From assembly GCA_963715195.1 (NCBI GenBank), contig CAVQRT010000003.1:128001-192000 (forward strand): a stretch of 64,000 nucleotides of DNA, written 5' to 3'. The notes under the pieces are model-generated. The model was given only the letters and a program-made list of their open reading frames with translations. It was not told the DNA's origin and made no database searches. The translations under genes were made by a program, and so were the position numbers. Source of the DNA: Thermodesulfovibrionales bacterium. Its GTDB lineage: Bacteria; Nitrospirota; Thermodesulfovibrionia; Thermodesulfovibrionales; SM23-35. Positions 1 to 19,786 of the stretch are shown here, in pieces (the first letter of the stretch is position 1; each line of letters begins with the position of its first letter).

Positions 1-278
1 TATTTGTTTTGCGCGAACTTGACAACAACACCCGCTTCTATATCGAGGGAAACACCCGCTGTTGACAGTAACATTGTCGACGACATAGTAAGGACTGTTT
101 GCGAGTGTCCACGTTGTATTCGTGGATATAGATCCGGAGACAGTTGTGGTTGCATTCAGAACAGAAGGCACTATGATTCCCGAGACAAGAAAGGCGAAAA
201 TAAAAACGATAAAGCTTCTGCATATTACGTTTCTATTTCTTATCGATGCCTTTCAAAGAGTTCCTTGCCCTTTTTCAT
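1..278 (-). CDS. N-terminus of a secreted protein, probably a large beta-helix-type surface protein; runs off the window edge; frameshifted
   Basis: Manual minus-strand translation gives a hydrophobic signal (FIVFIFAFLVSGIIVPSVLNA) then TTTVSGSISTNTTWTLANSPYYVVDNVTVNSG/VSLDIEAGVVVKF. ATG at 278 follows a G-rich RBS. About two indels are needed to join the frames. Confidence 0.6.
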
Positions 279-400
279 TTTCTTGCCCCCCTGTAAATGA
301 AAGCCTTCTGTTCTGTGTATATGCTTTTAATCCCCATAATTACCCGCAACGTATTTCTTCCAGCTGAATGCCTCGTTCTTTTCATTCCTTAACTACCCAT

Positions 401-446
401 AAAAAAACAAAAGGCTGGCACCAACACACACGCCAGCCTCTTTTGT
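401..446 (-). terminator. Intrinsic terminator in the leader of the secreted-protein gene
   Basis: Minus strand GAGGCTGGCG-loop-TGCCAGCCTT followed by TTGTTTTTTT. Confidence 0.65.
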
Positions 447-514
447 ATGAAAATTTGTATTACAAAAAGAATTTACTGAATCAGCATTCTCACGACGTAT
501 TTGAAACAAACTTC

Positions 515-636
515 ATGACCATCCTGGCAGCCTCCCCCAAAGATTTTCTCGTATGAAGAGATTTCCCTTGGTGATTCCCTTCATACTGTGCCCGGAGATT
601 CAGTCCCCCACTTTCCACTGAAAAAAATTGCCTCGT
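515..636 (-). promoter_or_regulatory. Possible degenerate c-di-GMP-I (GEMM)-like riboswitch
   Basis: Minus strand GGCAA...GAAAGTGGGGGACTGAATCTCCGGGC, an 11-bp hairpin GTATGAAGGGA/TCTCTTCATAC, and 3' GGCTGCCAGG; followed by a terminator. P2 pairing is poor. Confidence 0.3.
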
Positions 637-658
637 TATCTCCCCTTCTTTACAAAAC

Positions 659-698
659 ATTAAACCCCATGAGAGGTTACAGATAGGTTACAGAAAAA
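659..698 (-). promoter_or_regulatory. Duplicated promoter element, copy 1 (tandem CTGTAACC, 11-bp period, then TTTAAT)
   Basis: 37/40 identical to 2711-2750; contains GGTTACAGATAGGTTACAG at 675-693. Confidence 0.6.
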
Positions 699-821
699 GC
701 GCTAAAGGCCGAAGTGCTGAAGCTCTGAAAGCTTTTTTCATATATTTATCAAGGTAATAGCACTTTTTATAAAAGTAATTTGCTATCATATGTGTTTTCA
801 GGAAAATGTATAGATATTCAA

Positions 822-2225
822 TCAAATATCATCGACATTCACTACTCTCAGGATGGCTCCTATTTGGTTAACATCATTATTCAGTTTGTCCATCAGCCGG
901 TTTAGATCTAAGCGATGCTCATCCTTATAAAAAAGGAACAGCCCCATCATCTTCTCTCTCTTTCTGTCGCGAGGCTGATTTGATAGTCCCATTTTTTGCA
1001 TCAACGGCATAAGTGTATCGGTTATCTCAGAAACACTGTTAAATCTTTCTGCCGGGTCTTTCCGTATGCTCTTTACGATAACGCTCTGGAGTTCCTCCGG
1101 AAGATCGGGAATCAGAATACGAGGGTCCGGAGTATTTTCGTTTAAATGCAATTGCAGCAATTCCCCAAGATCGTCTTCAGGAAACGGCCTTTTCCCGGTG
1201 AGCAATTCGTAGACCATGATCCCAAGAGAATAGATGTCTGTACGTTCATCAACCGGTTCACCCTGTATCTGTTCGGGAGACATATAAAAAAGAGTGCCGG
1301 GCATATTGAAATCCATGCTGCCTTGCGGACATGCAAGGCCGAAATCGACAATCTTTGCCTGCCCGTCCGGTTGTATATAAATATTGGAAGGCTTGATATC
1401 CTGATGGATGATATCTTGTTTGTGGGCGTATTCCAATCCGGAACACACCTGTAAAATAATATCCAAAAGCACGGAAAGTGATGGCCTCGGCATATTTGCG
1501 AGTAGATATTCAAGAGAAGATCCCTCGAGGAATTCCATGATAATAAAGACCGTCCGGAAACGTTCTTCTATGTCGTACACTTTCACAATATTCGGATTGT
1601 TCAGACGGGCTATGGTCTTTGCTTCGTACTCGAACTTTTCCAAGAACTCCGGATCCATGGCAATATTATGTTTCAGCATCTTTACGGCAACCGGCAATTT
1701 CAGAACAGTATGTACACCCTTATAGACGATGCTCCAGGCCCCCTGGTCAAGGACTTCATGTATGGTATATTTTCCAATGGTTCTGTCGGCGGTAATTTTT
1801 GAGGAAGAGAACCGTTGCGCAACTATTTCGGTCAAAATATTTCTGAGATCGGCAAATTCATGGCAGAGGTTATCGAACTGTTCCCTCGTCAGACTCCATA
1901 AATCCATATCCGTTTCGGCATCAACATGAGTGCTCCTGCGGTTCACCTGTTAAACCGCCATCTCTCCCACCACGTCTCCGGCTTTGAGGCGAGCGACTGC
2001 ATTTAGAGTATTGTCCTTTTCCACATTAACGATGCACGATCCACTTTGGATAATATAAAGACTGTCTCCCTCATCTCCTTGTGTGATAAATCTCTCTCCT
2101 GCTTTAACCTGTTTGAATTCCAAATTGTCCAACAATGGAGCGATTGAATCATGGGGTATAGAAGTCAAGAGTTTTGTACTCAGAAGGAACTCAACAGTGG
2201 ATACCTCGTGATCTCCCCTTCTCAA
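822..2225 (-). CDS. Cyclic-nucleotide-binding domain fused to a Hanks-type Ser/Thr kinase (split by indels near 1940-1955)
   Basis: ORF 1950-2225 has cNMP motifs (ITQGDEGDSLYII, GEMA); ORF 822-1946 continues RSTHVDA and has VAVK, HQDIKPSN, DFG, YMSPEQ. Confidence 0.85.
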
Positions 2226-2262
2226 TGTAAGTCACCTTCCACGATCTTGAAACCCGCCATAG

Positions 2263-2544
2263 TCAGGGGTGGGTGAATTTTACGTCTGTCCACATGACGT
2301 GGGCTTTTACCTTTGAATCCCCCGCCTTGATATTCATCCTCTTCCCAATTGGCAAGGCTATTTTCTTATTCAACTCGATCCCAATTCCATGGTGAGAAGC
2401 ATTCGTGAGAGTTGCATTGACTCTCTTTTTATGAAGTAAAAATGAAAGTGGAATCTGTTTTTCAGTTCGAGGTTCATTCCTGCGCTCAACTCCATGTGAT
2501 GCGACAGACGATATGTCGTGCACTTTTGAATTTTTTCTGCCCAT
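2263..2544 (-). CDS. Stand-alone PilZ-domain protein
   Basis: ERRNEPR (RxxxR) and NASHHG (D/NxSxxG) c-di-GMP motifs. Confidence 0.75.
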   Translation of the reverse strand: MGRKNSKVHDISSVASHGVERRNEPRTEKQIPLSFLLHKKRVNATLTNASHHGIGIELNKKIALPIGKRMNIKAGDSKVKAHVMWTDVKFTHP

Positions 2545-2689
2545 TCTTACCAGATTTCAGGATGCTCCAGAGTTCATCATAGGTGATAAATATTTTTTTC
2601 CCCTTAACTCCAACTTTTTCTGCCACGCCGAGGATACTCCGGGGTTTATTTTTCTCTTTTCGAAAGATCCGGACGACATAGGTTTCCAA
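2486..2689 (-). CDS. Small hypothetical protein (METYVVRIFRKEKNKPRSILGVAEKVG...)
   Basis: TTG start after AAGGGGG RBS; overlaps the PilZ gene; resembles small proteins I recall beside MalT/SARP-type regulators. Confidence 0.6.
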   Translation of the reverse strand: METYVVRIFRKEKNKPRSILGVAEKVGVKGKKIFITYDELWSILKSGKNGQKKFKSARHIVCRITWS

Positions 2690-2710
2690 AATATCCCCCT
2701 TTTGGAGATT

Positions 2711-2750
2711 ATTAAAACCCATGGGAGGTTACAGATAGGTTACAGGAAAA
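2711..2750 (-). promoter_or_regulatory. Duplicated promoter element, copy 2
   Basis: GGTTACAGATAGGTTACAG at 2727-2745; 37/40 identical to 659-698. Confidence 0.6.
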
Positions 2751-2754
2751 TAAA

Positions 2755-2950
2755 GTGCTGAAGGATGAAGGCTGAAGGGTAGAAAAAAGAGAGAACTGGA
2801 GAGCTAAAGACTGAAGTTCTAAAAGCTAAAAAACTCAAGAATGGGGAGCTGAAGGCGAAATAGACTGAAGGATGAAGAAAGTAGAACTGAAGTGCTGAAG
2901 GATGAAGGCTGAAGCTTTAAGTCTAAAGACTAAAGATCTTAAGGCTGAAG
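2755..2950 (+). repeat. Degenerate GCTGAAG-type heptamer tandem repeats
   Basis: Repeated GCTGAAG/GATGAAG/ACTGAAG units; inverted copies (CTTCAGC) at 3321-3367 and a short run at 702-732. Confidence 0.75.
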
Positions 2951-3010
2951 TAGAAACAAACAGAGTCTAAGTTGTTGAATTTAAGATCTTATCGTGCTAT
3001 CCTGTTGGCT

Positions 3011-3373
3011 ATGTCGAATTACAGAAAACTGATCGCATGGCAAAAATCCGACGAGCTTGCTTTAATGGTATACAATGTTACGAAGAATTTCCCTAAGCAG
3101 GAGTTATTTGGTCTTACCTCGCAACTGAGGAGAGCAGCTCTTTCTGTACCCACAAATATTGTTGAAGGATATAATAGAAAAAGCAAAAAGGAATTACATA
3201 GATTTATTGATATCGCATTAGGTTCGCTTGCTGAAACTGAGTATTTAATAGAGTTTTCCCAAAAACTTGGCTATATAAAAGGTGATATTTCTCATATCGA
3301 AACCGCTATCGTTGAAATTGGCTTCAGCCTTCATCCTTCAGTGCTTTTTGCTCTTCAGCGCTTCAGGATTTGA
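3011..3373 (+). CDS. Four-helix-bundle protein (23S rRNA IVS protein-like family); last helix apparently truncated
   Basis: YRKLIAWQKS...FPKQELFGLTSQLRRAALSVPTNIVEG...IALGSLAETEY; ORF runs into the inverted repeat and overlaps the 3' end of the regulator. Confidence 0.85.
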   Translation: MSNYRKLIAWQKSDELALMVYNVTKNFPKQELFGLTSQLRRAALSVPTNIVEGYNRKSKKELHRFIDIALGSLAETEYLIEFSQKLGYIKGDISHIETAIVEIGFSLHPSVLFALQRFRI

Positions 3374-6300
3374 GCCCTGAGTGCTTCTGTTTCAGGTGAA
3401 GGCTCTAGTCCCAGCGCGGCAGAAGTTTTACGACGACGATTGTAAACCGCACGGGCTTCTGCTCTTCTTCCCATACGCTGATAGCGGCCATGAGTCGCTG
3501 GTAAAAGTTTTGGGCGAGGTCATCCACTTCAATGCCCTTGCGAAAAAGGGATTTTGCGCTTTGCACTTCTCCCCTCTTTTCGAAAAAAGGCCAGCCATCT
3601 CAATATTTGAAGAAATCTATTCTAGATGTTCACGAAAAGGATGCTACCCAGGGCTCACCTTCATCAGCCAAAAAATGCCCCGCATTAATTTCAAAGCTCT
3701 TGCGAAAGCGACATGATATTCAATTTGATTTCCCCTGTCATTCCTCCCGTCCAAACAGATCTTCCAAACGATTCAGAATTCTCTGCAGAAACCACGCATC
3801 AACCCAACAGCAACGGTCGATTGTTATTTTTCCATCACTGACGATCAGGGCTTTTTCACTGTGTCTCGGAGTTCACGGAGACGAGATAAGTAGGTTTGAA
3901 AGTGATATGACCGACCATCACCATATGCATCTAGCAGGAACATAAATGAGACGATCTTCTGAAACACCTTTTCCCTCCGCAAGCAATCACTGCTTTCAGA
4001 GCAGAAGCAGTTTCAATAGCACCTCCCCGGAGCCTCACGGGCTGCCCTGCTTTCCTAACCCAAACCGACCCAAGGTATTCAGTGTTTCCAACGGCCAGGG
4101 CCATCGTTCATCAACTGCAAGAAGTATCTGGAGAAGGTGGTCTTGTTTCTTTCGAATAGGAGTCTTTATATATTTTTCTTCAATTCCATGCTCAGTGCTT
4201 TCGTGAGGACAGTTTCCAGAGACACAAGGTTCAAGAGGCATCAATAGATTCATCGATCCTTTTTCTCGTCCTTTCTTCATCCCCTTGCGTATTGCCCTGA
4301 GAGCAGGCACTTCTTTTCCCTTCCTCAGGTAGAAGTATGCCTCAGTAAACAACAGGATGAAGGGCACAAATTCATTGTTGCTTTGCAATCCCAATGGTGT
4401 GAGCTCGTGAAAGACTTTTGAATGCCTGATTATTCTCCCCAAAGGCATTTGCAAGATAGGCTTTCCAGTACATAGGCGACAGAAGGGGTCCATGGATTAC
4501 CGATATCTTCACACAGCCTCAGACATTCTTCAGCATGAGTTGATGTTTGAGAGAGACTACCCTGATACAAGGCTACCCAGGCAGCACAGTAATGGTTGAA
4601 ACTCTTCTCCCAAGGCTTCATCAGGCTTGATGCAGAGATCATTTTTTGAAGACCGCTTTGCCTGAGGACTATTTCCACTTTTTAATGAGCTGATTAACCG
4701 TGTCCCAACAGCATATGTTCCATAACTCTGATTTTAAGGGATCGTGCCAGTTCAAGACCTTTCGACAACCACGTTCCCGCATTGTTTTTACATCGACATC
4801 ACATTAAAAAAAGCGGCCCCGAACCAGATCACAGTTAATATAATCAATGGAGGTGCATCATACCGTTCAATCATGCCCTGCAACGTTTCGAGGGCAATCT
4901 GCAATGCGCCGATTCGCCTAAACTATACAGGTAACTGGCCTCAGCAGTTGACATCATTATTTTCTGATATTCTTCCGAGGTCCTGTCAGTGATGGTGCGG
5001 ATGCAGTTTACCCATTTCTCCGCATCAATAGTTTGAGGTTTCCTCAGGTGAGTATCTTAAAGACGCTTAACACGACTTCGACCTCGGTATCTTCAGAAGG
5101 AATCCCCCATACTGTTGTATCATCCGTTCGCCTTCTTTTACCGAATTGGTCAAGCGATTTCAGACTTCTGGCCGAGTATGATCGATTCCACAGCCCGGCC
5201 CATGCCAGAAAAGACGCTGCCGCTTCATGAGATTCCCGAAAATCATAAAGTGCCTTCTCGAATACCTGCTGGCTCTATCTGGAAAACGGCATTCTGGATA
5301 CGCCTGACCAGGTAGAGCGACCAAGGATCAGCAGGTACAGCTTCTTCAGGAACAATGACCAGCCAGTTTTGGAGCGTCCCGTCTTTCCTGTCTTGTTGAG
5401 GACGGTGCCCATTTTAGAAGATAATGGATATCAGACTTTTTACGTCTCCAGATTCATGAATCAAACGAACGGCATCTTCTGCATGTTCTCATTCTTCAAG
5501 GAGCATTGCGGAATCATGTTTGATCATCGATGACTTGGCTGGGTCCAATGCACTTTTTGCCATGGAAAGTAAAAACTGCCCGGAAAAGCTGGTGATACCG
5601 GTAAGAAGTGCTTCCCTTCAATATTTTTTCGTGTGAGTATTCCTCTATAAAAAAACATCCCCTGATCAGGTCGTCCAGGATGGTATCGACATGTTTCATA
5701 CGAGTAAGTTTAGCGGCCATGTCACTACTCATTACAGGTAAGAAGCATGTCCTGAGCAAGAAGTCCTGCGTATTCTTGTCTGTCTTGAAAAAAACCTCTT
5801 GACCAAAATAGTCAAAGATATTCTGTGACGAAACCGGGACAGGTAGTCTCTCGTTATGAGACTCTGCATCGCTGCTCTTAAGAAAAAGCATGAGCCCGGC
5901 AGCCCAGCCGTTTGTCTTATCAAAAAGAGCACGAAAAACATTTTCCGGAAACCCACCCGGCATCTCCTTCTCAATGAGGTCCCTTGTCTCTTCCACAGTA
6001 AACTTCAGTGCATCCCAACCAATAATATGAGCCGACCCATGAACGATAAGACGTGCGAATGCAGGCGGTGGGTCCTTTCTGCTCAAAATGAAAAAGGTAA
6101 AACCTTCGGGAACCCCTCGTAATACATTGGCGATAATTGCATGAAACCTTGAACTGGCAGGCATTTCATGATAGTTGTCAATAACAAACATAAAAGGTTT
6201 ATTGATTCTGCTAAAGATTGCCTCGAAATAGCGATGGGAAAAAATAAGATCTCCACGTGCATGTTCAGCCGTATAGCGGGGCAATAGATGCCTTTTCTTA

Positions 6301-6605
6301 GGAAATAATTTCCGAAGGGCAATTTCCGTATAATAAAAAAGGTCCCAATGTCTTTATCTCCTTCATCGACCGAATACCATAAACAGGGAATATTGCGGTC
6401 AGATGCATAACTTGAGACAAGCGAAGTCTTGCCTGATCCGGGCCGGGCTCACGACAAAAGTTACCGGTGATTTTCTGCTGTTGTCGAGAATTGTGAAAAG
6501 TCGCCGTCGTGGCAGTATTCCAGCCACAGCAGGGCGGGCTATTTTCGGGAATAAAAGGAATCGTTTTTTGGTACGATTATTTTTTATCCCATCTATTCCC
6601 TCCAT
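3355..6605 (-). CDS. MalT-like P-loop ATPase / helical repeats / C-terminal wHTH-BTAD (SARP) transcriptional regulator; heavily frameshifted
   Basis: PKIARP...LPRRRLF start; reconstructed Walker A PAGSGKT; FVIDNYHE; KTNGWAAGL; YRYHQLFR; WPWPL..TLGRF; FYQRLM; ends LGLEPSPETEALRAQILKR*. Confidence 0.8.
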
Positions 6606-6626
6606 TCAACTAATTCCAGAAAATAT

Positions 6627-7395
6627 TTACACCCTTATCGTATCCCCATCCTTCAATATCCTCATGTGCATGAGGCTGAGTTTCTTCAGTTCATTTTTGA
6701 TAATTCCTTGATACTGTGGTTTTAAATGCGTAATACAGAGCTGCTCCGGTTTCTGTTGTATTTTCGCCAGTTCTTTTACCAGCAATTCCGGCGTCAGGTG
6801 TCCGCTTCGTAACGCCATTGCGCTCAAGGCATTGGGGAATGAAACGTCGATGATGAGGCAATTCAGTTTCTTATTCCCGAGTTTTTCCCACGTTCTTGCA
6901 GACGGCCCCGTATCCCCGGTATAAAAAAATATTCTACTCTTTCCATCTTCGACAAGATATCCAACTGCTGATACAGTGTGATTCACCTCGTATGGAGTAA
7001 TGGTGTAACTGTTCACACGGATTGATTTCCCGGTCGAGAGCTTCACAAGGTTCAGTATCGCATCGTCAGGCTTGGGGAGGATCGTAAATCGGGCCACATG
7101 GCGCTGTTGAACAAGTGCTCCTTTATCATTCTTAAAACCGGGGGGATACGATAGAGCGAGACTTTATTCTGTTTTTTTGAAACGATAATATTATCGGCAA
7201 GAAATGGAATGCTTGCGATGTGATCAAGGTGCGCATGAGTGATGAAGATATGTTTTATTTTCATCTGAGCCTTTTCATCCAGCGCCCCGGTAAAGCTTCC
7301 TGCATCGAATATGATTTCTTCATTCAGAAAGAAAACTCGGGGGTCTTATGCCCCGGCAATTCCGCACCCGAACAGCCTATGACCTTGATTTTCAT
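6627..7395 (-). CDS. MBL-fold (class II-like) 3',5'-cyclic nucleotide phosphodiesterase; frameshifted
   Basis: MKIKVIGCSGAE, THAHLDH, VNHTV, YTGDTG, DVSFPN, SGHLTP, ITHLKP across three frames. Confidence 0.8.
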
Positions 7396-7469
7396 GGTAT
7401 GCTCCTGATTACTTCCGCCAGTCCCACATTTATTGAATTTCGTCCATAAAGTTCCTACCTATATAGTCC

Positions 7470-7542
7470 GTCATTCCCCGACTTGGCCGGGAATCCATTT
7501 CTCGAGACAGCTCCTGATTGTCCGGTCATGCGGGACAATGAC
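7470..7542. repeat. GTCATT...AATGAC REP/MITE-like palindrome doublet
   Basis: GTCATTCCCCGACTTGGCCGGGAATCC...GATTGTCCGGTCATGCGGGACAATGAC. Confidence 0.7.
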
Positions 7543-7563
7543 AAAACATTAATTTATGTTGCT

Positions 7564-10021
7564 TTACGAAGAGACCTTGTATATCCTTACCCCCTGCTCT
7601 TTCCCTTTCACTTTAACCTTTGCGAGATCAATAAATTTCACCCCGCTCATACTACCAGATTCGATGCTCTTTCTGATATGCTCATAGGTAGGTTCTGTAA
7701 TCAGTATCCTCGGTTCATACTGCCGGGTGATCTTTTCCACCCGCGATGCGAGATTGACTGTGTCACCGATGACCGTGTAATCCATCTTCATGCCCTCCAC
7801 ACCGATGTTGCCGACCAGTACTTCACCGGTGTTGATGCCTATGCCGCAGTTGAGAACCGGCTTGCCCTCCTTCTCCCATTTCTTCTGGAGTTCATCGAGC
7901 GTCTTCGAAACCTCGAGTGCGCACTGAACCGCAAGTTCGGCATGGTTCGGCTGCGGAAAGGGAGCCCCCCAGAATGCCATTATCTGGTCGCCTGCAAACT
8001 CGTCTAGCGTGCCCTGCCACTTAAATATCCCGGTGCTCATTTCTGTAAAGTATTCATTCAGGATCGAGACTACTTCCTCCGGCTGCAGTTTCTCTGAGAG
8101 TGATGTGAACCCAATAAGGTCCATGAATAAGATCGTGACAGTCTTCCTGTCACCGCCGAGATTGACTTCTACGTCTTTGTGGATGATATCTTCGACAACC
8201 TGGGGTGAAAGATAACGGGAGAGATTCGTCCGTATGATCTCTTCCTTTTTGATCTGGTCAACGAGCTTGGCGTTTTCGATAGCCACTGCACCGCTGTTCG
8301 CTAAGGTATTCAAAAGATTGATATCCTCACGGGTGTAAAAATGACCCGACTTCTTGTAGCCAGGGCAAGGGCTCCCTTGACCGTATCCTGATGAAGGAGA
8401 GGCAGCACCATGCTTACCCCCATTCTCGAAAACCGGTCAGTGCAGGTATCCCTGATATCTTTGTAGCGAGGGTCTTCGTTTATGTCGTAGATGGTAATCA
8501 GCTTCTTGTTTTGTGAAATGAGATTGACAAACGGGTCATCGTACTGTATGCATTCGTTTTCATTGGTCTGGACTGATCAGTCTCATCGCCGATAAACATA
8601 GTTTGACATTCTTTCTTCTTGTCATCGAGAATAAGCACGCCGGCCTTATCAATAAACATTTCAAGCCTTGCTGTATTGATGAGCTTCCGAATGATTTCGT
8701 TCAGGTCTAGCATCGAGGTCAACGCATTGCTGACTTTCGTGACGGTCTCCTTGTAATCAAACTTCTTCCGGTAAAAGAGCTTGTCAACGGCGGTCTGAAC
8801 CGTCCTGTTGAGTGGATTGAAAAAGAAAACGACAATAATCGCAAAAAGTACCGGGTAGATTTTTTCTGAGTGTTCGCCGAATACCGGCTCGAACGTCGTC
8901 TGACTCCCACCTGCAGCGAGAAATACGTCAGGCCGACGACAGCGGTCATAATAGCATACCCAACTGCCCTTTTGACGTAGACGTCGACATCGAAGAGGTT
9001 GTGCTTTGCTATTGCATACGCGATAGATGCAGGAAATATGATGATGGGAATCGAGGTAAAATTTGTTATGACTTCAAATCCCACCAACGTTTCCCCCAAG
9101 AATGCGGCAAGGGACCAACTGCCGGTATGGGTAGCGCAAGCAAGGCTCCAAAAAGGACCACCTTCGCACGCTGCCTTGCAAGCACTGATGATTTCTTTGC
9201 AAAAGCATGAAGATTGAAACAATTAATGCGAGTGCACTATGAGCGCATAGAAAAGGACAATGGTAGAAGAATGGTAAACGCAGGTTGGGGATAGGAGATT
9301 TGTATAGGCACAACCAGTACTGTCGATATTATATAGGGAATAAGCTGAAAACGCGGACGTTTGTCGACCAACCTCGATCTTTCGGGGAACAACAGGCTGA
9401 GATGGAGAACGACAGCAGGCAGAAAGGCATCGTCGAAAAGATAAGCCTTACAAATCCAAAGTGTGTTGTTTCCAAATCGAAGGACACGAATGATGAAACA
9501 CCTTGAAGGAGACAAGCGCAGAAAAAACCCAGCTGATCATCGCATCGGGCTTGAGATGAAATACGATAATTCCGAGCAAAAGATAGAAGATGCCCAGGAA
9601 AAAAATGATGCCGAAGGTCAACTAGGTCTATGCCTGTAAAACGCATCGTTGGAACAGTTACCGAAATGACTTCGGCTTCTCTCTTAACCTGGTATTGAAT
9701 CGGGGTACCTACCTTAGTATTCAGGACTATTTCCTCGAGGACCTTTGCGGAAGAGACTTCTTTCCCATTGGCCCTAAGAATCTTGTCAGGATATTTCAAA
9801 CCGGCCTGCGTTCCGGTCCAGTGGTACTGACCAATATATCCGACAACCATCCGCTGATTGACGAGAAACCCCGGGAAAGGCTTATCTAACCATTGCACGG
9901 CGTTCCAGATGCATACTGCACCAATAGTCAAGGCAGCAATAATAAGTGCGATAAAAACAACCCTGCCGATGGATTGTCCGCCTGGTAAGTTTTTAGAAAA
10001 AGAGGATATCATGCTATTCAT
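7564..10021 (-). CDS. Membrane-bound class III nucleotidyl cyclase (TM-PDZ-multiTM-GAF-cyclase); frameshifted
   Basis: PDZ-like QAGLKYPDKILRANG; TM segments; GAF (YKKSGHFYTREDINLLNTLANSGAVAIENA); cyclase ILFMDLIGFT, GTLDEFAGD, YTVIGDTVNLASRVE. Confidence 0.85.
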
Positions 10022-10049
10022 ATCTAAAATTCGGATAAGATCTTTCTCC

Positions 10050-10133
10050 GTCATTGCCCGACTTGATCGGGCAATCCAGTATCGAATAAAAAGCTCTAAA
10101 GAACTGGATTATCCGGTCAAGCCGGATAATGAC
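10050..10133. repeat. GTCATT...AATGAC REP/MITE-like palindrome doublet
   Basis: GTCATTGCCCGACTTGATCGGGCAATCCAG...CTGGATTATCCGGTCAAGCCGGATAATGAC. Confidence 0.8.
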
Positions 10134-10260
10134 ACCCACTGGAACGGAGTTCGCCATGAATCTACTCAAGAATAAGCTAATCTCACAAGACAAAAGAATG
10201 CAATAAGTCCTGCCCATTTTTTGGAGAGGAAATTTTCTACGTATGTAAAAATCTTATATC

Positions 10261-11514
10261 TTAAAAATAGACCTGCAGCCCTAATCCTATGTATTGAGAC
10301 TTAAAGATATTATTTGAACCGGCAAATCTGTTTCGATATGAAATGGAGCCAGTGAGGGGAACCGGGAATTTTTTTGCCATATAGAGCGGCAATGTCGAAT
10401 AGGATAATGTGCCGATAAAAACGTGTTCTGTATAATCAGTTTCATCTTCCAGTGATTTGTATGCATATCCTTTATTACCTGAAACATCATCTTTCAAGGC
10501 AAATCCGTATTTATAATTTAAAGTCGCATCAAATCCAGGTGTTATGGTGTATTTCCCTGACACATCAATTTCAATAACATCACCGATGTCCCTATCAACT
10601 TTCTCCTTGTTAGCAGTAATTGGCAGGTCTACATCATCGGGGATTCTTAATTTTTCATGATCAGGCAATATCAAATCATATCTGAATGTTGCGTTGAGCA
10701 CCAAATTCTTTATGCCGGTGTAATCATTGTTTAAACGGAAAAGCAGTGCATAGGCACCAGTTCCTATTGGATAGGCAGTTAAATCATCAGGATCGTCTAT
10801 CTCACCGCTTGGAAACCTCACCCCTCCGGTAAAAGCAAGCCTCCAGTTGTCCGTCTTCAAATATTGATATCTGGCTCCCAATTCAATATCACCTATACCG
10901 TTATTCTTAAAAGTTCCGAACTCCTTATATCCGAAACCGGGAACGTCAATAGTCCCATCCCCATTGATATCAAGGCCCTTAGCTAAAAGAGCTATGACAT
11001 CCTTTTTCGTCAGGGGAACTGTTCCCGGACAGCGAGGGGGACAAGGTTATTTAAAGCAGCATTTTTACCGAACGGTTGCAGCAGAGGTATCCAGACTCGA
11101 TTTCACCTCATTCTTCACCCACCAATACGGCAGTAAAATTCCCACCGAGAGCTTGTCAGTTACACCGTACATGAAGGTCATTTCCGTTATTGTGAAGTAA
11201 TAATCAAACGAAACATCAGTTCTCCCAAGATTTGCGGATCCCGGCGGCATGCCGAAAAAATCTTCTATAAGGCTTAAATCAGTAAAGACGGTGCTATCCA
11301 AAGTGGTATTGTAATCTGTTGCTACGTCCTCGGTATCGCCATCAGGGTCATAACGCTCATTGATCTTGAAATAAAACTTGCCGTCGAGGCTGATATTTGC
11401 CACCCCCTTAGGCAACACTTCAGCGCTGTCGGCATAACAAATAGCAGCGATTGCCAAAAAGATGAGACAGATTAAGAAGCTACTTCCATACATCATGCGT
11501 CCTCGCCTTTTCAT
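10261..11514 (-). CDS. Outer-membrane beta-barrel ('transporter'-like) protein; frameshifted near 10950-11070
   Basis: Signal peptide, AEVLPKGV, YGVTDKLSVG, GIGDIELGARYQ, alternating beta pattern, C-terminal GLQVYF; DINGDGTID loop. Confidence 0.7.
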
Positions 11515-11565
11515 GGTTTTCCCCCTTTTTTGAATTCTCATTGACCATTATATAACATCATGTGC

Positions 11566-13161
11566 CTATTTCAAGAAATATTTACGAACAAGTTCATTCC
11601 ACACAATCATACCGATCACCAGTAAAGAAATAATATAAATAAACCAATCGCCGTATCTGTTGTAAAAGGACCTTTCCGAAGTCAACGGAATTTGCCCCAC
11701 CAGGTATCCCTCGACATCGACGTCTCTTCCCGCTTCGTCCTTGACCCTGCCCACAATCCGCCCGTTCGGTTCGATAATACATGAGACACCGGTCGAAGCA
11801 GTCCTCGCAATAGCCACATGATTTTCGACAGCCCGAAGAACGCTCATCGCTGTCATTTGATAATGTGCTGCCGGAACACGTGTAAAACCTTCATTCGTCA
11901 TGTTGACCATAAAGTCAACCCCTTTTGAAGACATCTCCCGGAATTGATCAGGAAACATATATTCCCAGCAGATGAGGACCCCGAATGTTGTTCCGTTCAT
12001 GTTGAAAATGGTTAATTCATTGCCCGGTTCATGGTCCGTAATATCCGAGATAATCCATGAGGGCCACTTTAGATACTCTCGCATAGGCAGGTATTCATCA
12101 AAGGGAAGGAGGCGTATTTTATCATACCTTCCTATATTTCTCCCTTCCGGTGAGAAAAGAAAGGCAGAATTCGCAACTCTTTTTTTCTTTCTCTTATCCC
12201 TGCTGAACTTATCAAAGCCGCTCGACCCGATTAGAAGGAAATTGCCTGTTTGTTGCGCCAATTCAGAAAGCATTTTGAATCGTTGCCAGTCGTAGGGAAT
12301 CCTTCCGGGCACCGACGAAGAAGGCCACAAGATAAGGTCGGGTTTCGACTCCGCCGCACGCAGCGTTTGATCGGAGTATTTCTGAAAAATCCCCTCCCTG
12401 TACGTAGCATCAAACTTATATTTATCAGTCCAGTACCGGTCGTCCCAGTAAACGTTCCCCTGTACCAGAGCACCTTTCAGAGAAGGAAAACGTTTAGCGT
12501 CCCGCCAAGACAAAGACCCGGAGAAGACAGATAATGCGAATACGGCCAAAACAGCAGCAGCAAGCAGGAATAAGGATCTTCTCAAACTTATTGTCCCAAG
12601 TATTCCCTGAGGAATACTCAAACGAGAAGAAAGAATCGATTCGGTAATTTCTGCGATAACAGTATTCACCGCAACGATCAGAAACGAAACACCGTAAACC
12701 CCCGTGAAAGCGGCAACCTGGATAACAGGAATGACAGAATACTGCGAATATCCCAAAATCCCCCAGGGCCATGATAAAAAACCCACGTGGCTTCGTAAAA
12801 ACTCAAGAGCAACCCATACTGATGGAAAAGTAAGGACATTCCACTTTGGATACTTGTTGTGAAAATAGTGCGCTAAATATCCGAACAAGCCAAAGTATAA
12901 TGCAACACCCACTAATGTAATGCTGAAATGGAGCAGATTGAAAGACTCTATTTTCAGCACCCACCACTGGAGACCGAAATTGAACACGAGACTTGCAGCC
13001 ATTGATGACAGGCATGCCCCGAGAGGGCCTGCTTGCCTGATAACAATAAGAAGGGGCACAAGGGCTATCCAGGCTAAATAGTGCATCTCGAAACCCGGGA
13101 AGATCAATATGAGAAAAGTTGCAGAGAGGAATACTGAACTTATAATGAAAAGGACTCTCAC
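11566..13161 (-). CDS. lnt: Apolipoprotein N-acyltransferase (Lnt)-like protein with the catalytic Glu replaced
   Basis: WIALVPL, WVALEFLRS, LGYSQ, GVYGVSF, VQGN, WPSS (normally WPES), YDKIRLLPFDEY, ICWE, RAVEN, YNRYGDW. Confidence 0.85.
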   Translation of the reverse strand: MRVLFIISSVFLSATFLILIFPGFEMHYLAWIALVPLLIVIRQAGPLGACLSSMAASLVFNFGLQWWVLKIESFNLLHFSITLVGVALYFGLFGYLAHYFHNKYPKWNVLTFPSVWVALEFLRSHVGFLSWPWGILGYSQYSVIPVIQVAAFTGVYGVSFLIVAVNTVIAEITESILSSRLSIPQGILGTISLRRSLFLLAAAVLAVFALSVFSGSLSWRDAKRFPSLKGALVQGNVYWDDRYWTDKYKFDATYREGIFQKYSDQTLRAAESKPDLILWPSSSVPGRIPYDWQRFKMLSELAQQTGNFLLIGSSGFDKFSRDKRKKKRVANSAFLFSPEGRNIGRYDKIRLLPFDEYLPMREYLKWPSWIISDITDHEPGNELTIFNMNGTTFGVLICWEYMFPDQFREMSSKGVDFMVNMTNEGFTRVPAAHYQMTAMSVLRAVENHVAIARTASTGVSCIIEPNGRIVGRVKDEAGRDVDVEGYLVGQIPLTSERSFYNRYGDWFIYIISLLVIGMIVWNELVRKYFLK

Positions 13162-13258: not shown

Positions 13259-13749
13259 CTATTTCACAGCAAGCTCAACATCAAATACAGCGTAAAAGGC
13301 AGGAGGGAAGTGACAACATCTACCTGAGCAAATTGCTTTGCAGATTTCAAGGAAACTGTCAGATCGGTATCACCTCCAAAAAATGCATCTATAACCTGTG
13401 GTGCCATTGCTTCAGTAATTTCCGCCTGGTTCAACGCAATATCGTTAATAAGAACTCCTTCTGCCGTGCCATAGAGAAGTACTGGGTCACCGCTTCCCTT
13501 CTGTAATCTCAACACGATCTTTGCATCAGCAATGCTATTAAGAGGATTACCTCCAGGTATCTCGACGTTGTAATATTCTATACAGATAACCCCGTTCAGT
13601 TTTGTCCCGGCTGCATCGGACTGATATGCCATCCCGTGTGGGGGATCACCAGTGTCTGCCTGCTGAGGTGCCCCTGAGCCTCCATATGCCAGTGAGCACG
13701 TAAAGGCTATTACCAAAAGGACCATTCCTATGTTCTTTAGCTGTTTCAT
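13259..13749 (-). CDS. Exported hypothetical protein (probable C-terminal frameshift)
   Basis: GGAG RBS, signal MKQLKNIGMVLLVIAFTCSLAYG; alternative frame ends FPPAFYAVFDVELAVK*. Confidence 0.65.
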
Positions 13750-13889: not shown

Positions 13890-14768
13890 CTACTGCAGCG
13901 TCACATCTGCCCGGTCAGCCGATGTATAACCCGTCCCGATATACCATGTGACCTTTCCGCCCTTGTTTGTGTATTTGATTGATTGATCAAGGATGACCCC
14001 TGTGCCGCTCTTGTAGTGATAGCCTCCGAACCGGCTGTTATAAGACGAGGTCAGCTGCATCAAATGCCCCGCCTCGTGTGCTATCGTGTGATTGATGTAT
14101 TTGGCATAAAGTTCAGGACGCTCAACTCCTGTGCTGTCCTGACACTGGCTTGCGCCAGTACACACGTCGTCAATGAAATTTATGATCCGCTGCGTGTAAA
14201 TGGTTGAGTAGTCCAAACCGTTCGGTGTCCCATAGTTGGCAAAGCCAAGGACATCCAAATTCGAAACATCCAGACTCTCCGTAATCATGATCGCCTTCTG
14301 CTGCGATGCCGATGTGACTCTCCTGTCAGCATCTGCTTGACCCGGATCAAGTTGGTGAGCAGCAATTCCAAGACCCCCGTCTGCCGCGGTCTTGGTGATG
14401 TATGCCAGGGGATCTGCGGTCATGTTGCTTGGCGCCTCTGGAACAAAAACCACAAACAGGTCCTTCGAATCTGGATCCATACGGTCTGGTCTATTCAATC
14501 CACTATTGGCCCCAGGGAAATGACTCATGTCAGAAAATCCCTCACACTCCAGTTGGTCCGAAAACCCGTCTCCATCAGCATCCTCTAACGGACTAGGACC
14601 TGCAGTGCAGTCCACCAGTGCGTAGGCAGGCACGCTGGAAAGACACAAAGCCAAAGCAAGGACGAGTATAATCATCAGCCAGGAATACTTCCATAAACTG
14701 AAAAAATTTCTCATACCTAAGCTATAGACAACTCGCTTTTCTGTTCTGTAACCATTCTTCTTAAACAT
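13890..14768 (-). CDS. Exported putative zinc metallopeptidase with an acidic Ca-binding loop
   Basis: Signal peptide ending AYA; DADGDGFSD; TIAHEAGH (HExxH). Confidence 0.7.
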   Translation of the reverse strand: MFKKNGYRTEKRVVYSLGMRNFFSLWKYSWLMIILVLALALCLSSVPAYALVDCTAGPSPLEDADGDGFSDQLECEGFSDMSHFPGANSGLNRPDRMDPDSKDLFVVFVPEAPSNMTADPLAYITKTAADGGLGIAAHQLDPGQADADRRVTSASQQKAIMITESLDVSNLDVLGFANYGTPNGLDYSTIYTQRIINFIDDVCTGASQCQDSTGVERPELYAKYINHTIAHEAGHLMQLTSSYNSRFGGYHYKSGTGVILDQSIKYTNKGGKVTWYIGTGYTSADRADVTLQ

Positions 14769-14842: not shown

Positions 14843-16926
14843 TTATTTCTTATGAATTACGATCGACCCACCGCCGAGAGCAGTAGTGGGTTCAGCCGAT
14901 TCATCAGCGCCGATCATATTGTCGTAAACGATCGTGTCAGCATTATTTTTATCCCAAATCTTGATTCTGAACTTATCAGTCCTCCGCCTCCGTTGATCTG
15001 GCCGTCAATCGCCGTAATCATAAACCCGTAGTTGCCTGAGCCATTAATCGTTCCAGTGCCTTTATACTTTGCCCTTGCGCCGGCAATCACAAGCCAATCA
15101 TAAGAAGAAGAGTGGAAAGTCAGATCCGCAACCTTGAACTGGAACTGAGTTTCGCCAGTTGGAGCGGTAGCACCTTTCTTATATTTGGATACGAATCCAA
15201 AGGTCGCTTTGCCAGTAAGACTTGGATCGGCTGCATAAGCTCCGAGAGGTGAATCGATCCAGCCCCCGCCAGTCACAAAACCACTACTGGCATCATACGT
15301 CACCACGTATTGATAAGTGGCCTCACCGCTTCCTCCCCGGTTATCCTGAACTTTCAGCTTAAGCGTATATACTCCAGGGACACTATATGTATGAGTGCCT
15401 CTGGCCACGCCAGTGCCAGCTCCCTCATTAACTATCCCCTCGCTGTCTGAACTATCTCCCCAGTCCCATGTCGCGATGTGCGTATCAGCAGTATCACCGT
15501 CGGTAAAGTTCGCGCTGACCGATACGGCTAAATTCGACGCAACCGGTTCCGACGGAGCAGTGATATCACCAACTACCGGATTATTGTTTTCGGTAGGAAT
15601 TATTGTGATAATAGTTTCTGGAGAACTGATTGCCCCCACCCACAGGTACGCACATGGATCCTGCAGTGGTGTGCACATTCCGCCCACAATGTCAGGATCC
15701 GTAATATAGTTCGAGTAGGTTGCCGTAATACCATATTGACCCCCGATGAGCACCTGCGAATCGTACATTTCATCAAGATAACAGCCAGTCACCTTGTAAC
15801 ATTGTTCCGCGTCTAGGGTCATAACGTCTGTCGGTATTCCATAGGCTCGCCATACCCTGTCCTTTGGAGGTAGGATATAACGTAAACCATTCAATATATA
15901 CTCAGCTGAGAAAGTCGTATTGTAGCATTCAGGCGTAATAATATCGATTGCTAAGCCACTATCATTGCAGAACTGCGCTTCAACCAATATCTGACTTCCT
16001 TCATTTATGGGTCCCGTCGGCACCGCAATAGTCTCTGTCTTACCATCACAAGCATCTCCAAGGCCATCTCTATCCTGATCTCCTTGATCTGGATTAGGGG
16101 CAGTCGGGCAATTGTCGCAGGCATCTCCTATTCCATCTAAATCTTCGTCTTTTTGATCAGGATTGTAAATTGATACACAGTTATCAACATCATTACAGAC
16201 TCCATCGACATCCGCATCAGGACAGATTCCTGCAATTTTGGATGAAAGGACCGACCCTATTGCACTTCTCTGAGGTGTTTTCGTCAGGAGGACCAAAACC
16301 TCCGCAGGTTGCATCCCGAGAGGGGTATCCGCCGCAAACTCTATAGCAAAAGACGGCAAGGCAGAATATGGACTTTCAATACCTACAAGAGCACCCGGCG
16401 AGAAATAAAAAGTATCCATTTGCGATATCCAGTTCCATTGCACATATGCCTGAGTACCGTCATCAACATAGACTATTTCCCATGCACTATTACTGCAATA
16501 ATAGGTACCGGGTCCATTAATGCCCTTCGTGTAAGCAGTCCCTCCCGTTGGAACATAAAAAGGTGGCACTGCAGATGTATTAAAAAACCCGACCGGTTCG
16601 TATATCCCGATAACTTGACTGCCAGGCTCAATACAATTCTAAAAGACTTTATCCCATAAGCTGAAGTATTCCACATGTCATACTGAATACGTTTAACTCG
16701 GTATAGGCGATTGTGGACAAAAAGAGAGCAATTTTCATCGAGGTATCCCGTCAAATTAGGAGAGTCACTCACATAACCAACTTCAACAGTACCTAAGTCC
16801 CCTTTGAAAGTTGTTTCCGTGCCTCTCAGCGCACTAGCAGTATTTGCCAACAGTAAAAGAGAGATCACACTACAAAAAACAAAAACGAAATTTTTCAACT
16901 TCATGCATCTGTTCATTTTTACTCAT
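14843..16926 (-). CDS. Secreted thrombospondin type-3 repeat / PKD domain protein; frameshifted
   Basis: AGGAGGT RBS and signal ...TASA; DNCxxxxNPDQxDxDxDGxGDACD repeats; PKD WDWGD...[10 protein letters not shown]-terminal GGGWIDSP...[11 protein letters not shown]...[10 protein letters not shown]. Confidence 0.8.
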
Positions 16927-17515
16927 ACCTCCTTTTCGTGGTGTTATGTCAATTGATTAAAGTTTCCAACTAAGAATCGATTTTCATATTAACGCCCTCC
17001 TGACAGCCTCCCCCTTAAATTTTTTCGTACAAAAAAATATCACTTCCCGACTCTATATATTCCAGACCAACAAACTCCCCCCTATTTTTTATAAACCTGC
17101 TACTGTCAGTTCTCTCTTTTACTTTCGGGGATTAATGGTAGAAATAAGTTTATCTATAAATAATACGGAAATACCACAATATTTCAATTATCTAATAGGC
17201 TTAATTATAAATATCTTTAGTTCTAATTAATCCTAAAACTTTAGTTTTATATCGTTTCTTTAGTTCACAATAACAATTGGTTGCTGACAGAGAAAAGTCT
17301 CTTTGCCTTTTGAATGATGCTCACCGTTTTAAGATTATCGTCCGCAGAAAAAACAAATTTATAAAATATTTTGTATTTTATCATAAATAATTCATCACCG
17401 CAATGGAAATATTGCTTTTTTTCTTGGTAATATTGCTCTTTAGAAAAAAAACTTTGAAGGTGGCAGGGAACAAAATGAACTACCCACCAGCAAGCAAGCT
17501 ACGATGTGTGAAAAA

Positions 17516-17669
17516 TGTCATTCCGGCTTGTTTGCCCGCCGTCTTTTTGGAGGGGCCGGAATCTTTCCTCAAACACACACCCCTTTATCCCCTCTTGATA
17601 GAGGGGACCCCGGAAGGATTCTCGCCTCAGGCGAGTCGCCGAGGAGACACGCCAAGCGGGAATGACAGA
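17516..17669. repeat. ~150-bp composite palindromic element, copy 1
   Basis: TGTCATTCCGGCTTG...GCGGGAATGACA with nested CCCCTCTTGATAGAGGGG; near-identical to 18450-18602. Confidence 0.85.
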
Positions 17670-17716
17670 CAAGCGGGGATATTTACTCCGATGAAGGGCA
17701 TCGAGGAATTCTATTC

Positions 17717-18436: not shown

Positions 18437-18449
18437 CTCTTCTTAAATA

Positions 18450-18713: not shown

Positions 18714-19574
18714 CTACTGCAAATCCAGAAGGGATACATGCATGAAAACTCCTTCAGTCGCGTGCATGAGATCGGAACAGCTCCTCGCATTTTCTATAGC
18801 GATAGAGGCATAAATGGAAAGGGAACGCAGCATCTTTAGGTCTTCCAGGGTAAATAACTTCTGTGAGCTGTAGCTCATATTGATCACGCCAAAAACCGAA
18901 CTTTTCCACCTGAGCGGGACACACAGCAGAGAGGTAATGCCCGCATGCCCTTTCTTAAAGCGCGGGTCAGAAAGGACATTGTTCACCAGTTCAGCCTTGC
19001 CGGTATTGATCACATCTCCTGCGATGCCTACACCGATAGGTAAATCCTCCTTGGGATCCCATACGGTACCGAAAGCAGCCTTGATCAGCAGGGATTTTTT
19101 ATCCTCATCAACAAGCATTATAGAGCCGTTTTCAGCAGTGATAATATTCCGGGCCTCTTCGATGACAAAATTGCAGGTTTCCTCAACATCGATGCACAAT
19201 CCCAGGCGCTTTCTCTTTACCTGCGCAAATTCCTCATCAAGCCTCCGTATTCTCGAGCTCATCGATTCGATAAGCCGCAATACCAGCGTCGGGTCGCGAT
19301 CGATTGTCTGAAAAAGTTTTTGCTTGTCAATGCCCAGTATCCTTGTATCACCGACTGCAGTGGCGGTTGCAGACCGGGGCAGCCGGTCAAAAAGAGCCAT
19401 CTCTCCAAAAATCTCCCCTTGTTCGATGATCGCAATCGGAACTTCTCCTGCGGGCGACTTTTTCGTTATGCTTACGCTGCCGGATTGGACAACATACATG
19501 CGGTCACCCTCTTCTCCCTCCTGAAATATTACGTCTCCGTCTGAATAAACCCTGCCGAGTTCACTTTCTTTCAT
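18714..19574 (-). CDS. cNMP-binding + GAF domain protein with no output domain
   Basis: IFQEGEEGDRMYVV, FGEMALFDRLPRSATA; GAF GIAGDV...DPRF...LLCVPL...IAIENA; start after GGAGG. Confidence 0.85.
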   Translation of the reverse strand: MKESELGRVYSDGDVIFQEGEEGDRMYVVQSGSVSITKKSPAGEVPIAIIEQGEIFGEMALFDRLPRSATATAVGDTRILGIDKQKLFQTIDRDPTLVLRLIESMSSRIRRLDEEFAQVKRKRLGLCIDVEETCNFVIEEARNIITAENGSIMLVDEDKKSLLIKAAFGTVWDPKEDLPIGVGIAGDVINTGKAELVNNVLSDPRFKKGHAGITSLLCVPLRWKSSVFGVINMSYSSQKLFTLEDLKMLRSLSIYASIAIENARSCSDLMHATEGVFMHVSLLDLQ

Positions 19575-19620
19575 AAGACCTCCACCGCTAGGATATCTGT
19601 CTCTACATCTAAAATCATCC

Positions 19621-19708
19621 GTCATTGTCCGGCTTGACCGGCCAATCCAGAACCTATGAATCCCGAAAGAATCCGAAAATGGATTCCCCGATCAAGTCGG
19701 GGAATGAC
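19621..19708. repeat. GTCATT...AATGAC REP/MITE-like palindrome doublet
   Basis: GTCATTGTCCGGCTTGACCGGCCAATCC...GGATTCCCCGATCAAGTCGGGGAATGAC. Confidence 0.8.
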
Positions 19709-19786
19709 TGACTATTGTAACTTCAATGTATATATGGACTCAAACTATTCCCAGCTTGCGTTATTCATGCATAAAATCTGATATGG

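Follow-up and report, generated by a model that had tools for sequence, protein, structure and literature searches.

A mobile cassette pairing an Lnt paralogue with a small secreted protein, an outer-membrane barrel and a PDZ-GAF receptor in a Thermodesulfovibrionales genome

N-acylation of proteins without a lipobox has been reported so far only for AatD of enteric pathogens (PMC7478709, PMC7943197), an enzyme described from Enterobacterales only (PMC7478709) that acylates the N-terminal Gly of CexE once this has been cut by signal peptidase I (PMC7943197, PMC8689077, PMC13622617). In a 64-kb stretch of a Thermodesulfovibrionales genome (the window, positions 128001-192000 of contig C3; C4, C5, C16 and C30 are other contigs of the same genome), a paralogue of Lnt, called here Lnt*, is encoded beside a small secreted protein (X), together with an outer-membrane barrel and a membrane receptor with a cyclase domain. 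As in the AatD/CexD-CexE/Aap systems, a dedicated Lnt homologue is thus found next to a small secreted protein that lacks a lipobox, has a signal peptidase I site and frequently carries Gly at its N-terminus. However, AatD has about 10% identity to Lnt (PMC8689077), whereas Lnt* scores as TIGR00546 and nests among the Lnt proteins. Also, the AatPABC/TolC-ABC exporter of the Aat system is replaced in the cassette by a barrel of the 12-stranded type, a metzincin-like protein and a receptor, and no AatA, AatB, AatC or AatP family was detected among the genes recurring in at least 3 of 42 GTDB loci. The Gly at position +1, invariant in Aat substrates, is only enriched in X (17/48; 52-57/144 in the wider family), and a plasmid search had no AatD sequence among the 60 of 496 matches listed. 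By analogy the cassette may work like AatD, yet it falls outside the Aat group in that its Gly is not invariant and AatPABC is missing.

Other parts of the locus resemble further described systems. The NsrA-CyaK/CyaD-Clr pathway of Sinorhizobium meliloti (PMC7529298) also combines an outer-membrane protein, an inner-membrane adenylate cyclase, a proteinaceous cue and a transcriptional output, but it has a different barrel, a CHASE2 sensor instead of a PDZ-transmembrane (TM)-GAF one, a CRP rather than a SARP output and no counterpart of Lnt* or X. PrsK of the PEP-CTERM/exosortase system (PMC1569441) likewise joins several TM segments and GAF in a receptor that is associated with secreted proteins and with an enzyme that anchors proteins, and its profile (TIGR02916) aligned with residues 157-605 of our receptor (E 7e-16), at 57.9 bits against a cut-off of 300; in contrast to PrsK, which has a histidine-kinase output, the receptor adds a PDZ domain and a cyclase output that varies between loci, and no exosortase, PrsR or PEP-CTERM tail was seen. 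The closest structural matches of the barrel are FapF of the Pseudomonas Fap system (5O65) and the COG4313 channel Pput2725 (4RL8); whereas the Fap system includes amyloid-repeat substrates and the C39 peptidase FapD, the barrel here neighbours X, a metzincin-like protein (Y) and an Ig-like protein (Z), with neither amyloid repeats nor a C39 peptidase among them. AfsK-AfsR/SARP, in which AfsK phosphorylates AfsR (PMC10972967), shares with the MalT-like regulator of the window the STAND ATPase, TPR and winged helix-turn-helix (wHTH)-BTAD modules, a neighbouring Ser/Thr kinase and heptamers with an 11-bp period, but the window regulator has the reversed domain order (SARP module C-terminal), a diderm host and secreted-protein genes as probable targets. 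Finally, Synechocystis Cya2 and the cyclic GMP (cGMP) systems of Rhodospirillum centenum share the class III cyclase; Cya2 has a Glu-Gly purine pair (PMC4215837), whereas this lineage has Lys/Thr, with Glu in the window copy only. In the full-text literature, few subscription journals included, no description of this cassette or of Lnt-paralogue-based signalling was found. The architecture is therefore apparently undescribed; each of its components is a member of a known family or similar to one, and we infer the mechanism.

The original prediction for this DNA had proposed that positions 1-13161 form a self-contained, co-oriented cluster for cGMP or cyclic AMP (cAMP) signalling, leading from the envelope to a kinase and a SARP-type regulator. 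The genes that it named do exist: a Pfam search confirmed Lnt, barrel, PDZ, class III cyclase, class II phosphodiesterase (PDE), PilZ, cyclic nucleotide (cNMP)-binding and Ser/Thr kinase domains, all on the minus strand, and the intact copies on C4 and C5 did the same for GAF, BTAD and the beta-helix secreted protein (Table 1). Their common orientation is also correct, but the run is broken by a plus-strand gene of the IVP/bAvd type. The small open reading frame (ORF) and the PilZ gene, listed as separate, are one ORF in C5, the window copy being one base longer, and the bounds were drawn too narrowly, as the conserved cassette reaches about 16916 and its core parts X, Y and Z were missed.

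The unit that is conserved is a mobile cassette, Z-Y-X-Lnt*-barrel-receptor, and not a cGMP circuit. Its content was determined by a receptor-anchored census of 42 GTDB loci plus the best 80 of 176 metagenome loci (122 in total), with MalT/SARP and the kinase used as reciprocal anchors. Linkage was counted in close GTDB loci whose upstream flank spans 2.5 kb or more (n = 26) and in metagenome loci with at least 2.5 kb (n = 49) or at least 6 kb (n = 28); loci with short flanks were dropped, and seven distant GTDB receptor loci (L077-L083) were counted apart. In the GTDB loci with room, Lnt was found in 25/26, X in 25/26, Y in 23/26, the barrel in 18/26 and Z in 13/26. In the metagenome loci, Lnt was present in 49/49 with 2.5 kb of flank, and those with 6 kb carried Lnt in 28/28, X in 26/28, Y in 25/28 and the barrel in 20/28. 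Of all pairs, receptor and Lnt* stay together most consistently, with the barrel lost more often, and the seven distant receptor loci showed no linkage to Lnt, X, Y, barrel or Z. The distance matrices of Lnt*, receptor and barrel correlate modestly (rho 0.41, 0.21 and 0.32), kin not being independent. Judging by record titles, the receptor loci belong to Nitrospirota, Acidobacteria, Rokubacteria, Scalinduaceae, deltaproteobacteria and Gammaproteobacteria, and the receptor is present in 6/401 genomes of the phylum; it is this spread over several phyla together with the patchy presence that identifies the cassette as mobile.

These counts uphold the predicted envelope input, with barrel, Lnt-like protein and PDZ receptor tightly linked to the cyclase, but they separate the nine genes that had been taken as one unit: the 122 receptor loci include no kinase, no PilZ and only three MalT/SARP genes, and PDE was detected in 4/42 GTDB loci (one of them weak) and 17/80 metagenome loci. 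Neither is a cyclic nucleotide the essence of the system, since the output domain of the same receptor can be a cyclase, a PP2C/SpoIIE phosphatase or a histidine kinase, nor is the locus self-contained, as further cNMP-binding proteins and CRP/FNR regulators are encoded elsewhere in the genome.

X is a secreted protein of 140-200 aa encoded directly upstream of Lnt* in nearly all loci with room. A profile of X matched 528 clusters at 50% identity, making X hypervariable, and among the 150 listed nearly all are stand-alone proteins. A second profile, built from these matches, recognised 42 of the 63 X proteins in the loci, the remainder being assigned by position, size and motif; since the two X alignments have rows in common, comparing their profiles is circular. 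A lipobox was detected in 0/48 X proteins of the locus set, in 1/148 of the wider family and in 0/17 Y proteins. The tether of X contains 25% Gly, 15% Pro and 12% Ser, and in the structural model (pLDDT 87.5) it is disordered and precedes a b-b-b-a-b-b domain; no Foldseek match to this fold was obtained at E<=0.001 (the best VIA match had Z 6.1, with a root-mean-square deviation of 3.0 over 67 aligned residues), and an ESM Atlas search with X gave no usable match. Gly occupied position +1 in 17/48 X proteins compared to 5/65 neighbouring secreted controls (Fisher p 5e-4), the X pick of L129, a FabF-like fragment, having been removed before counting. Regarding its neighbours, the metzincin motif HExxHxxGxxH and the Met-turn were clear in 12 of 19 aligned Y proteins, with weak matches in the PDB; in the window clade, HExxH is retained, the third His is displaced and the Met is missing. 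The Ig-like domain conserved in Z belongs to no named family.

Lnt* scored 259 bits with the TIGR00546 Lnt profile (cut-off 132.9). A single housekeeping lnt was found in this genome (on C30) and in each of 24/24 relatives, so the cassette copies are additional. In a tree of 95 sequences (61 cassette copies and 34 others, no AatD sequence being included), the 61 cassette copies plus one other formed a clade with a support of 0.976, apart from the 33 others, and the support for the 61 alone was 0.363. Cassette Lnt* proteins keep Cys387 in 61/61, Lys335 in 60/61 and Glu267 in 51/61. The acceptor-site set of housekeeping Lnt (Y388, G145, V339, G342, D413) is not found in them: Y388W is present in 59/61 vs. 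0/34 of the others and D413E in 61/61 vs. 0/34, G145 is kept in 9/61 vs. 34/34 and H425 in 0/61 vs. 31/34, and V339 and G342 also differ. In Escherichia coli Lnt, these positions line the substrate cavity; the G145A, V339A, G342A and Y388W variants do not complement, yet Y388W and V339A, although inactive, form the acyl-enzyme, and the authors assign them to acceptor recognition (PMC5500890). Because Y388W is fixed in the cassette copies and the same variant of the E. coli enzyme still forms the acyl-enzyme, we infer by analogy that Lnt* loads an acyl chain and serves a different acceptor than housekeeping Lnt.

The model of the barrel (pLDDT 88.5) had FapF (5O65) and 4RL8 as best Foldseek matches (E 5e-13 and 4e-12, 11-13% identity), and PF13557 was above cut-off for the C4 barrel; as modelled, the protein has the COG4313/FapF fold. 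The 4RL8 channel is thought to take up amphipathic molecules (PMC4493636) and FapF secretes polypeptides (PMC5557850). As an uptake channel and a secretor match alike, the barrel may import or export.

Concerning the receptor, an early reading of its cyclase took the Glu at the purine-specifying site (codon 7999-8001) as the mark of a cGMP system; this reading was rejected. Lys marks adenylyl and Glu guanylyl cyclases (PMC4215837), and Glu is private to the error-rich window copy, whereas C4 and C5 have Lys, a difference of one base, as do 110/120 of the closest homologues, in which the second purine site is Thr in 118/120. The C4 cyclase keeps D649, D693, K689, T764, N771 and R775 (conserved in 119, 120, 110, 118, 118 and 120 of the 120 homologues, respectively), that is, the two metal Asp, the Lys plus Asp/Thr purine pair and the Asn-Arg transition-state pair of class III adenylyl cyclases. 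With Lys in the sister copies and in most homologues, the cyclase of this lineage is, by its residues, adenylyl-type. Across 96 receptor-cyclase loci the purine site was Lys in 53, Glu in 28, Asp in 13 and unread in 2, and a class II PDE accompanied 20/53 Lys-type loci vs. 0/41 Glu/Asp-type ones; the proposed link of PDE to cyclase is therefore sustained, for the Lys type only. The Glu-type receptor clade (L044, L047, L049-L051, L120, L127, L139 and others; PDE neighbour in 0/28) comprises candidate guanylyl cyclases, and L044 adds a weak C-terminal PilZ; the Asp-type receptors (13/96) form another clade. An ESM Atlas search with the membrane part of the receptor gave only leads below 0.9 (HisKA_7TM, PDZ), and the top cyclase matches of relatives (about 58%) turned out to be a different gene, located beside bam/lpx genes in 7/8 of the loci listed. 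A Pycsar-like defence function was considered and dropped, as the cyclase forms part of a membrane receptor whose output can be exchanged.

The genes downstream of the receptor apparently belong to another layer. The MalT/SARP gene (BTAD E 4e-23; AfsR profile matched over residues 870-1095) is present in 68/251 genomes of the order, and none of 19 MalT/SARP loci carried Lnt*, barrel or receptor. Four of these 19 carry a CHASE2 cyclase followed by a large secreted gene, with FecR-TPR(-TonB barrel) genes in the three scanned, and four carry FAD oxidoreductase and cNMP genes, counterparts of window 18714-21097. In the complete relative G526, a SARP fragment, PilZ, a CHASE2 cyclase, a FecR-TPR barrel, a metallo-beta-lactamase (MBL) hydrolase and a 79%-identical cNMP-kinase are grouped, which speaks for the predicted association, but the sensor is a different one. 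Because the SARP/kinase layer adjoins CHASE2 cyclase and FecR-TPR genes in relatives, the downstream genes would represent a family-level cAMP layer able to pair with either sensor. The pair formed by a CHASE2 cyclase and a FecR-TPR-TonB barrel, which we take to be the NsrA architecture, stands beside the same SARP/PDE/cNMP genes at L084, L085, L086, L100 and L267. The kinase itself is found in 21/251 genomes. Near the G526 kinase cluster (L268:369-2258), two cNMP-binding domains are fused to Oxidored_q6 (hydrogenase small-subunit-like), and at L269-L273 there are PilZ-cNMP-Ser/Thr kinase fusions of about 586 aa, possible c-di-GMP/cNMP integrators, often beside genes that are presumably ExeA/GspB-like.

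Two SARP-type boxes were found in the window vs. 0.14 expected. In each, a direct heptamer repeat with a period of 11 bp is followed by a -10-like element. When trained on 11 sites in the loci of 7 relatives, a matrix matched 16/19 SARP loci (9/12 held out), 0/48 other loci and 4/122 receptor loci. The sites precede the small protein gene and secreted genes; those of relatives are also placed before cyclase or oxidoreductase genes. SARP sites are direct heptamer repeats over the -35 region of target genes, a pattern that the box fits (PMC10972967), and it is a candidate SARP binding site. The small protein (window 2486-2722) belongs to no Pfam family and recurs by MalT/SARP genes directly behind the box (L085, L088, L089, L091, L093, L098, L100 and L101); its position compares, by analogy only, with that of AfsS behind AfsR. 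The box is also present at C16:18610, before secreted-protein genes, and boxes track the MalT/SARP loci L084-L102. The control of secreted proteins, also part of the original prediction, gains support from the box before the beta-helix secreted gene, but not for the core cassette.

From these data we propose, with a probability of about 0.42, a core mechanism in which acylated X is sensed by the receptor, complemented by an accessory cAMP layer. X would leave the cytoplasm via Sec and be cleaved by signal peptidase I, and Lnt* would load a fatty acid from phospholipid onto its Cys and pass it to the free alpha-amine of X (usually of a Gly), and not to a canonical diacylglyceryl-Cys lipoprotein. 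The barrel would move acyl-X, or an acyl-peptide cut from X by the metzincin-like Y, across the outer membrane, and the receptor would read acyl-X or its fragment through its PDZ and membrane domains and switch its modular output, here an adenylyl cyclase. In the response layer, PDE would remove cAMP while cNMP-kinase, PilZ and MalT/SARP respond to it, with the SARP, possibly under AfsK/AfsR-like phosphorylation, acting on the box before secreted genes and the small/PilZ gene. A relay from cAMP through the kinase to the SARP is plausible by comparison with AfsK-AfsR.

Several observations weigh against this proposal. The barrel is missing from about a quarter to a third of the loci, the 7.8-kb contig of locus L069 encodes X, Y and the receptor but no Lnt, and the metagenome loci include near-duplicates. 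Gly at +1 is a plurality in the wider X family (52-57/144), where Lys, Ala, Ser and Thr also occur, and cleavage sites were set by a crude script, blind to the +1 residue, and not by SignalP. In the Lnt* subclade of the window (10/61, including all three copies of this genome) the general-base Glu267 is replaced by Ser, so that the E267-K335-C387 triad is incomplete in the window, C4 and C5, and E267A is inactive in E. coli Lnt (PMC5500890). Regarding the accessory layer, the kinase is elsewhere mostly part of a PilZ-cNMP-kinase fusion, in loci that are unrelated. In this genome the core cassette is not preceded by a box, so the SARP outputs here would be the small/PilZ gene and the gene for the beta-helix protein. 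Among relatives, boxes stand before cyclase genes, which means that the SARP may sit upstream of cAMP and not downstream.

The alternative that survives best, unlikely but a serious contender, is that acyl-X serves for surface display, anchoring or chaperoning a secreted Y/Z protease-adhesin that is exported via the FapF-like barrel, whereas the receptor senses another cue and regulates the cassette, as is assumed of PrsK for PEP-CTERM proteins. The polypeptide secretion by FapF (PMC5557850), whose fold is as close as that of the uptake channel, would fit this function, as would the lipoprotein-like tether and folded domain of X, the match of the receptor to the PrsK profile, albeit below cut-off, and a second X-Y pair without Lnt or barrel at the far end of the island. 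However, the strictest linkage is that of receptor and Lnt*, not of the barrel, and the hypervariability of X is as expected of a specificity signal. Taking the proposed sensing of acyl-X further, it could amount to diderm lipopeptide cell-cell signalling, in which Lnt* N-acylates hypervariable X, Y frees an acyl-peptide, the barrel carries it and the receptor reads it with kin specificity, the outputs being cAMP, PP2C, histidine kinase or perhaps, in the Glu-type clade, cGMP, and the catalytic acid having moved from Glu267 to Asp342 in this lineage; as a whole, we regard this extended version as rather unlikely.

The Ser at position 267 also bears on whether Lnt* is an enzyme. All ten Ser267 proteins have gained Asp342, whereas two sister copies with Glu267 have Asn342, so that the Ser267/Asp342 proteins may have a relocated catalytic acid or be dead enzymes. 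At least in the clade of the window, Lnt* could then be a non-catalytic co-receptor, or a lipid- or peptide-binding subunit of the receptor, for which its near-perfect adjacency to the receptor would also speak. We consider this improbable, as Glu267 and Cys387 are kept in most or all of the cassette proteins and the coupled change at 342 looks like a relocated acid.

The frameshifts reported in the original prediction are present in the window, and they are far denser there than in the housekeeping genes, with breaks in 2/49 of these, meaning that they are local to this region. C5 matches the window colinearly at about 93% identity. On C4, Lnt, barrel, receptor and PDE are found at 86% identity in a different arrangement, and no gene is broken in all three copies. 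Short-read contigs from four other public runs match C4/C5 at the window indels listed, contradicting, among these, those near 7085, 7328, 8898, 9072, 9087, 9111, 9620, 11026-11028 and 11070. In barrel, receptor and PDE, the changes private to the window comprised 117 synonymous and 71 non-synonymous substitutions, 1 stop and 14 indels. Many indels cancel pairwise, and the kinase stop arises from such a compensating pair. The frameshifts would therefore be local assembly or consensus noise in a strain-mixed region, and in the cell the genes of the window copy are most likely whole, the indels stemming from assembly. A genuine, recently decayed pseudogene cluster in a recombining island, the decayed mosaic that the original prediction had allowed for, is quite improbable. 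It would account for the local density of breaks, for the higher non-synonymous share in the window (71/188) than in C4 (75/282) or C5 (19/63), and for the deleted second-copy remnant on C3 and the fused deletion form in G002, but each of the three co-assembled copies has different genes broken, the 14 indels accompany 189 substitutions that are mostly synonymous, and the independent contigs side with C4/C5; the cross-phylum conservation of the cassette would in any case be unaffected. Finally, a self-contained nine-gene cGMP circuit from barrel to SARP, to which the window Glu, the recurrence of the cyclase-PDE-SARP order in C5, G002 and L117 and the Glu-type cyclases of the wider family (28/96) would point, is very improbable indeed given Lys in both sister copies and nearest homologues, the absence of kinase and PilZ from the receptor loci and that of PDE from the Glu-type members.

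For environmental bacteria from several phyla, the cassette predicts an independent route of N-acylation within the Lnt family. It suggests that a secreted protein may be lipidated and sensed in a manner not described so far. Y388W, which in the E. coli enzyme uncouples the loading of the acyl chain from the acceptance of lipoproteins, has been fixed in it by nature. If the proposal is true, it would provide a ligand for the PDZ-TM-GAF receptor family, a function for the orphan family X with its 528 clusters and a binding site for a MalT/SARP regulator common in the order (68/251 genomes).

The coordinates of the genes and boxes are collected in Table 1. No RNA dataset containing this stretch was listed, the best DNA datasets sharing less than 0.1 of its words, and scans for sigma-70 promoters (34 vs. 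33.8) and terminators (21 vs. 16.4) in it were at chance level.

Table 1. Features of the window, ordered along the direction of the cassette, with the neighbouring upstream genes last.
Feature	Positions	Strand	Remarks
Z, secreted	14914..16916	-	Ig-like conserved domain, TSP3 repeats, PKD, post-COAP-1-like tail; two ORFs, frameshift
Y, secreted	13890..14768	-	metzincin-like HExxH domain at the end; HExxH in window copy
X, small secreted protein	13259..13749	-	signal peptide without lipobox, Gly/Pro/Ser-rich tether, b-b-b-a-b-b domain; frameshift near 3' end
Lnt paralogue (Lnt*)	11566..13161	-	Pfam; triad Lys and Cys kept; Ser at E267, Asp at 342; Y388W, D413E
Outer-membrane barrel, COG4313/FapF fold (modelled)	10261..11541	-	compensating indel pair in window
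Receptor: TM, periplasmic PDZ, multi-TM, GAF, class III cyclase	7564..10054	-	833 aa, intact on C4; adenylyl-type lineage by its residues
Class II (MBL-fold) phosphodiesterase, accessory	6627..7395	-	Pfam
MalT-like STAND-TPR protein with C-terminal SARP (wHTH-BTAD) module, accessory	3355..6605	-	many indels; intact on C5
Four-helix 23S_rRNA_IVP/bAvd-like gene	2972..3373	+	inserted on opposite strand; outside the system
SARP-type box, two heptamers, 11-bp period	2727..2744	-	precedes small/PilZ gene
Small SARP-associated protein and PilZ	2263..2722	-	RxxxR and NxSxxG motifs visible; fused on C5, window copy one base longer
cNMP-binding domain and Ser/Thr kinase, accessory	822..2225	-	stop from compensating indel pair
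Second SARP-type box	675..692	-	precedes beta-helix secreted gene
5' end of 1253-aa secreted beta-helix/Big_5 protein	1..278	-	probable SARP target
cNMP-GAF protein and FAD oxidoreductase	18714..21097	-	family-level cAMP layer upstream of cassette

The locus is part of a variable island rich in genes for large secreted proteins. At L001:3338-15642 such genes follow one another in series, with MopE-type metal-binding, TSP3, LRR, PD40 and beta-helix repeats and including a 1.7-kb tandem duplication. The second X-Y pair is located at the far end of the island (L001:1050-2702; C3:113050-114700), followed by a 3' remnant of PDE, and C4 carries a full cassette at flanks that match those of this pair. 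In a genome of the same genus (G002), contig C5 (L024:4707-7957) has the 5' part of the cNMP-GAF gene joined to the 3' part of the receptor gene, followed by PDE and the start of SARP, which looks like a deletion of the whole core cassette. At C4 (L022:12135-14208) and L105 (71-2062), the cassette is headed by a membrane protein with C-terminal TPRs, which we assume to be TMTC-like. Within the window, the IVP/bAvd gene is flanked by inverted 26-nt repeats (2748-3347), suggesting an inserted element, and at 17511-18602 a PIN-domain gene (17717-18130) sits between two copies of a 160-nt repeat.

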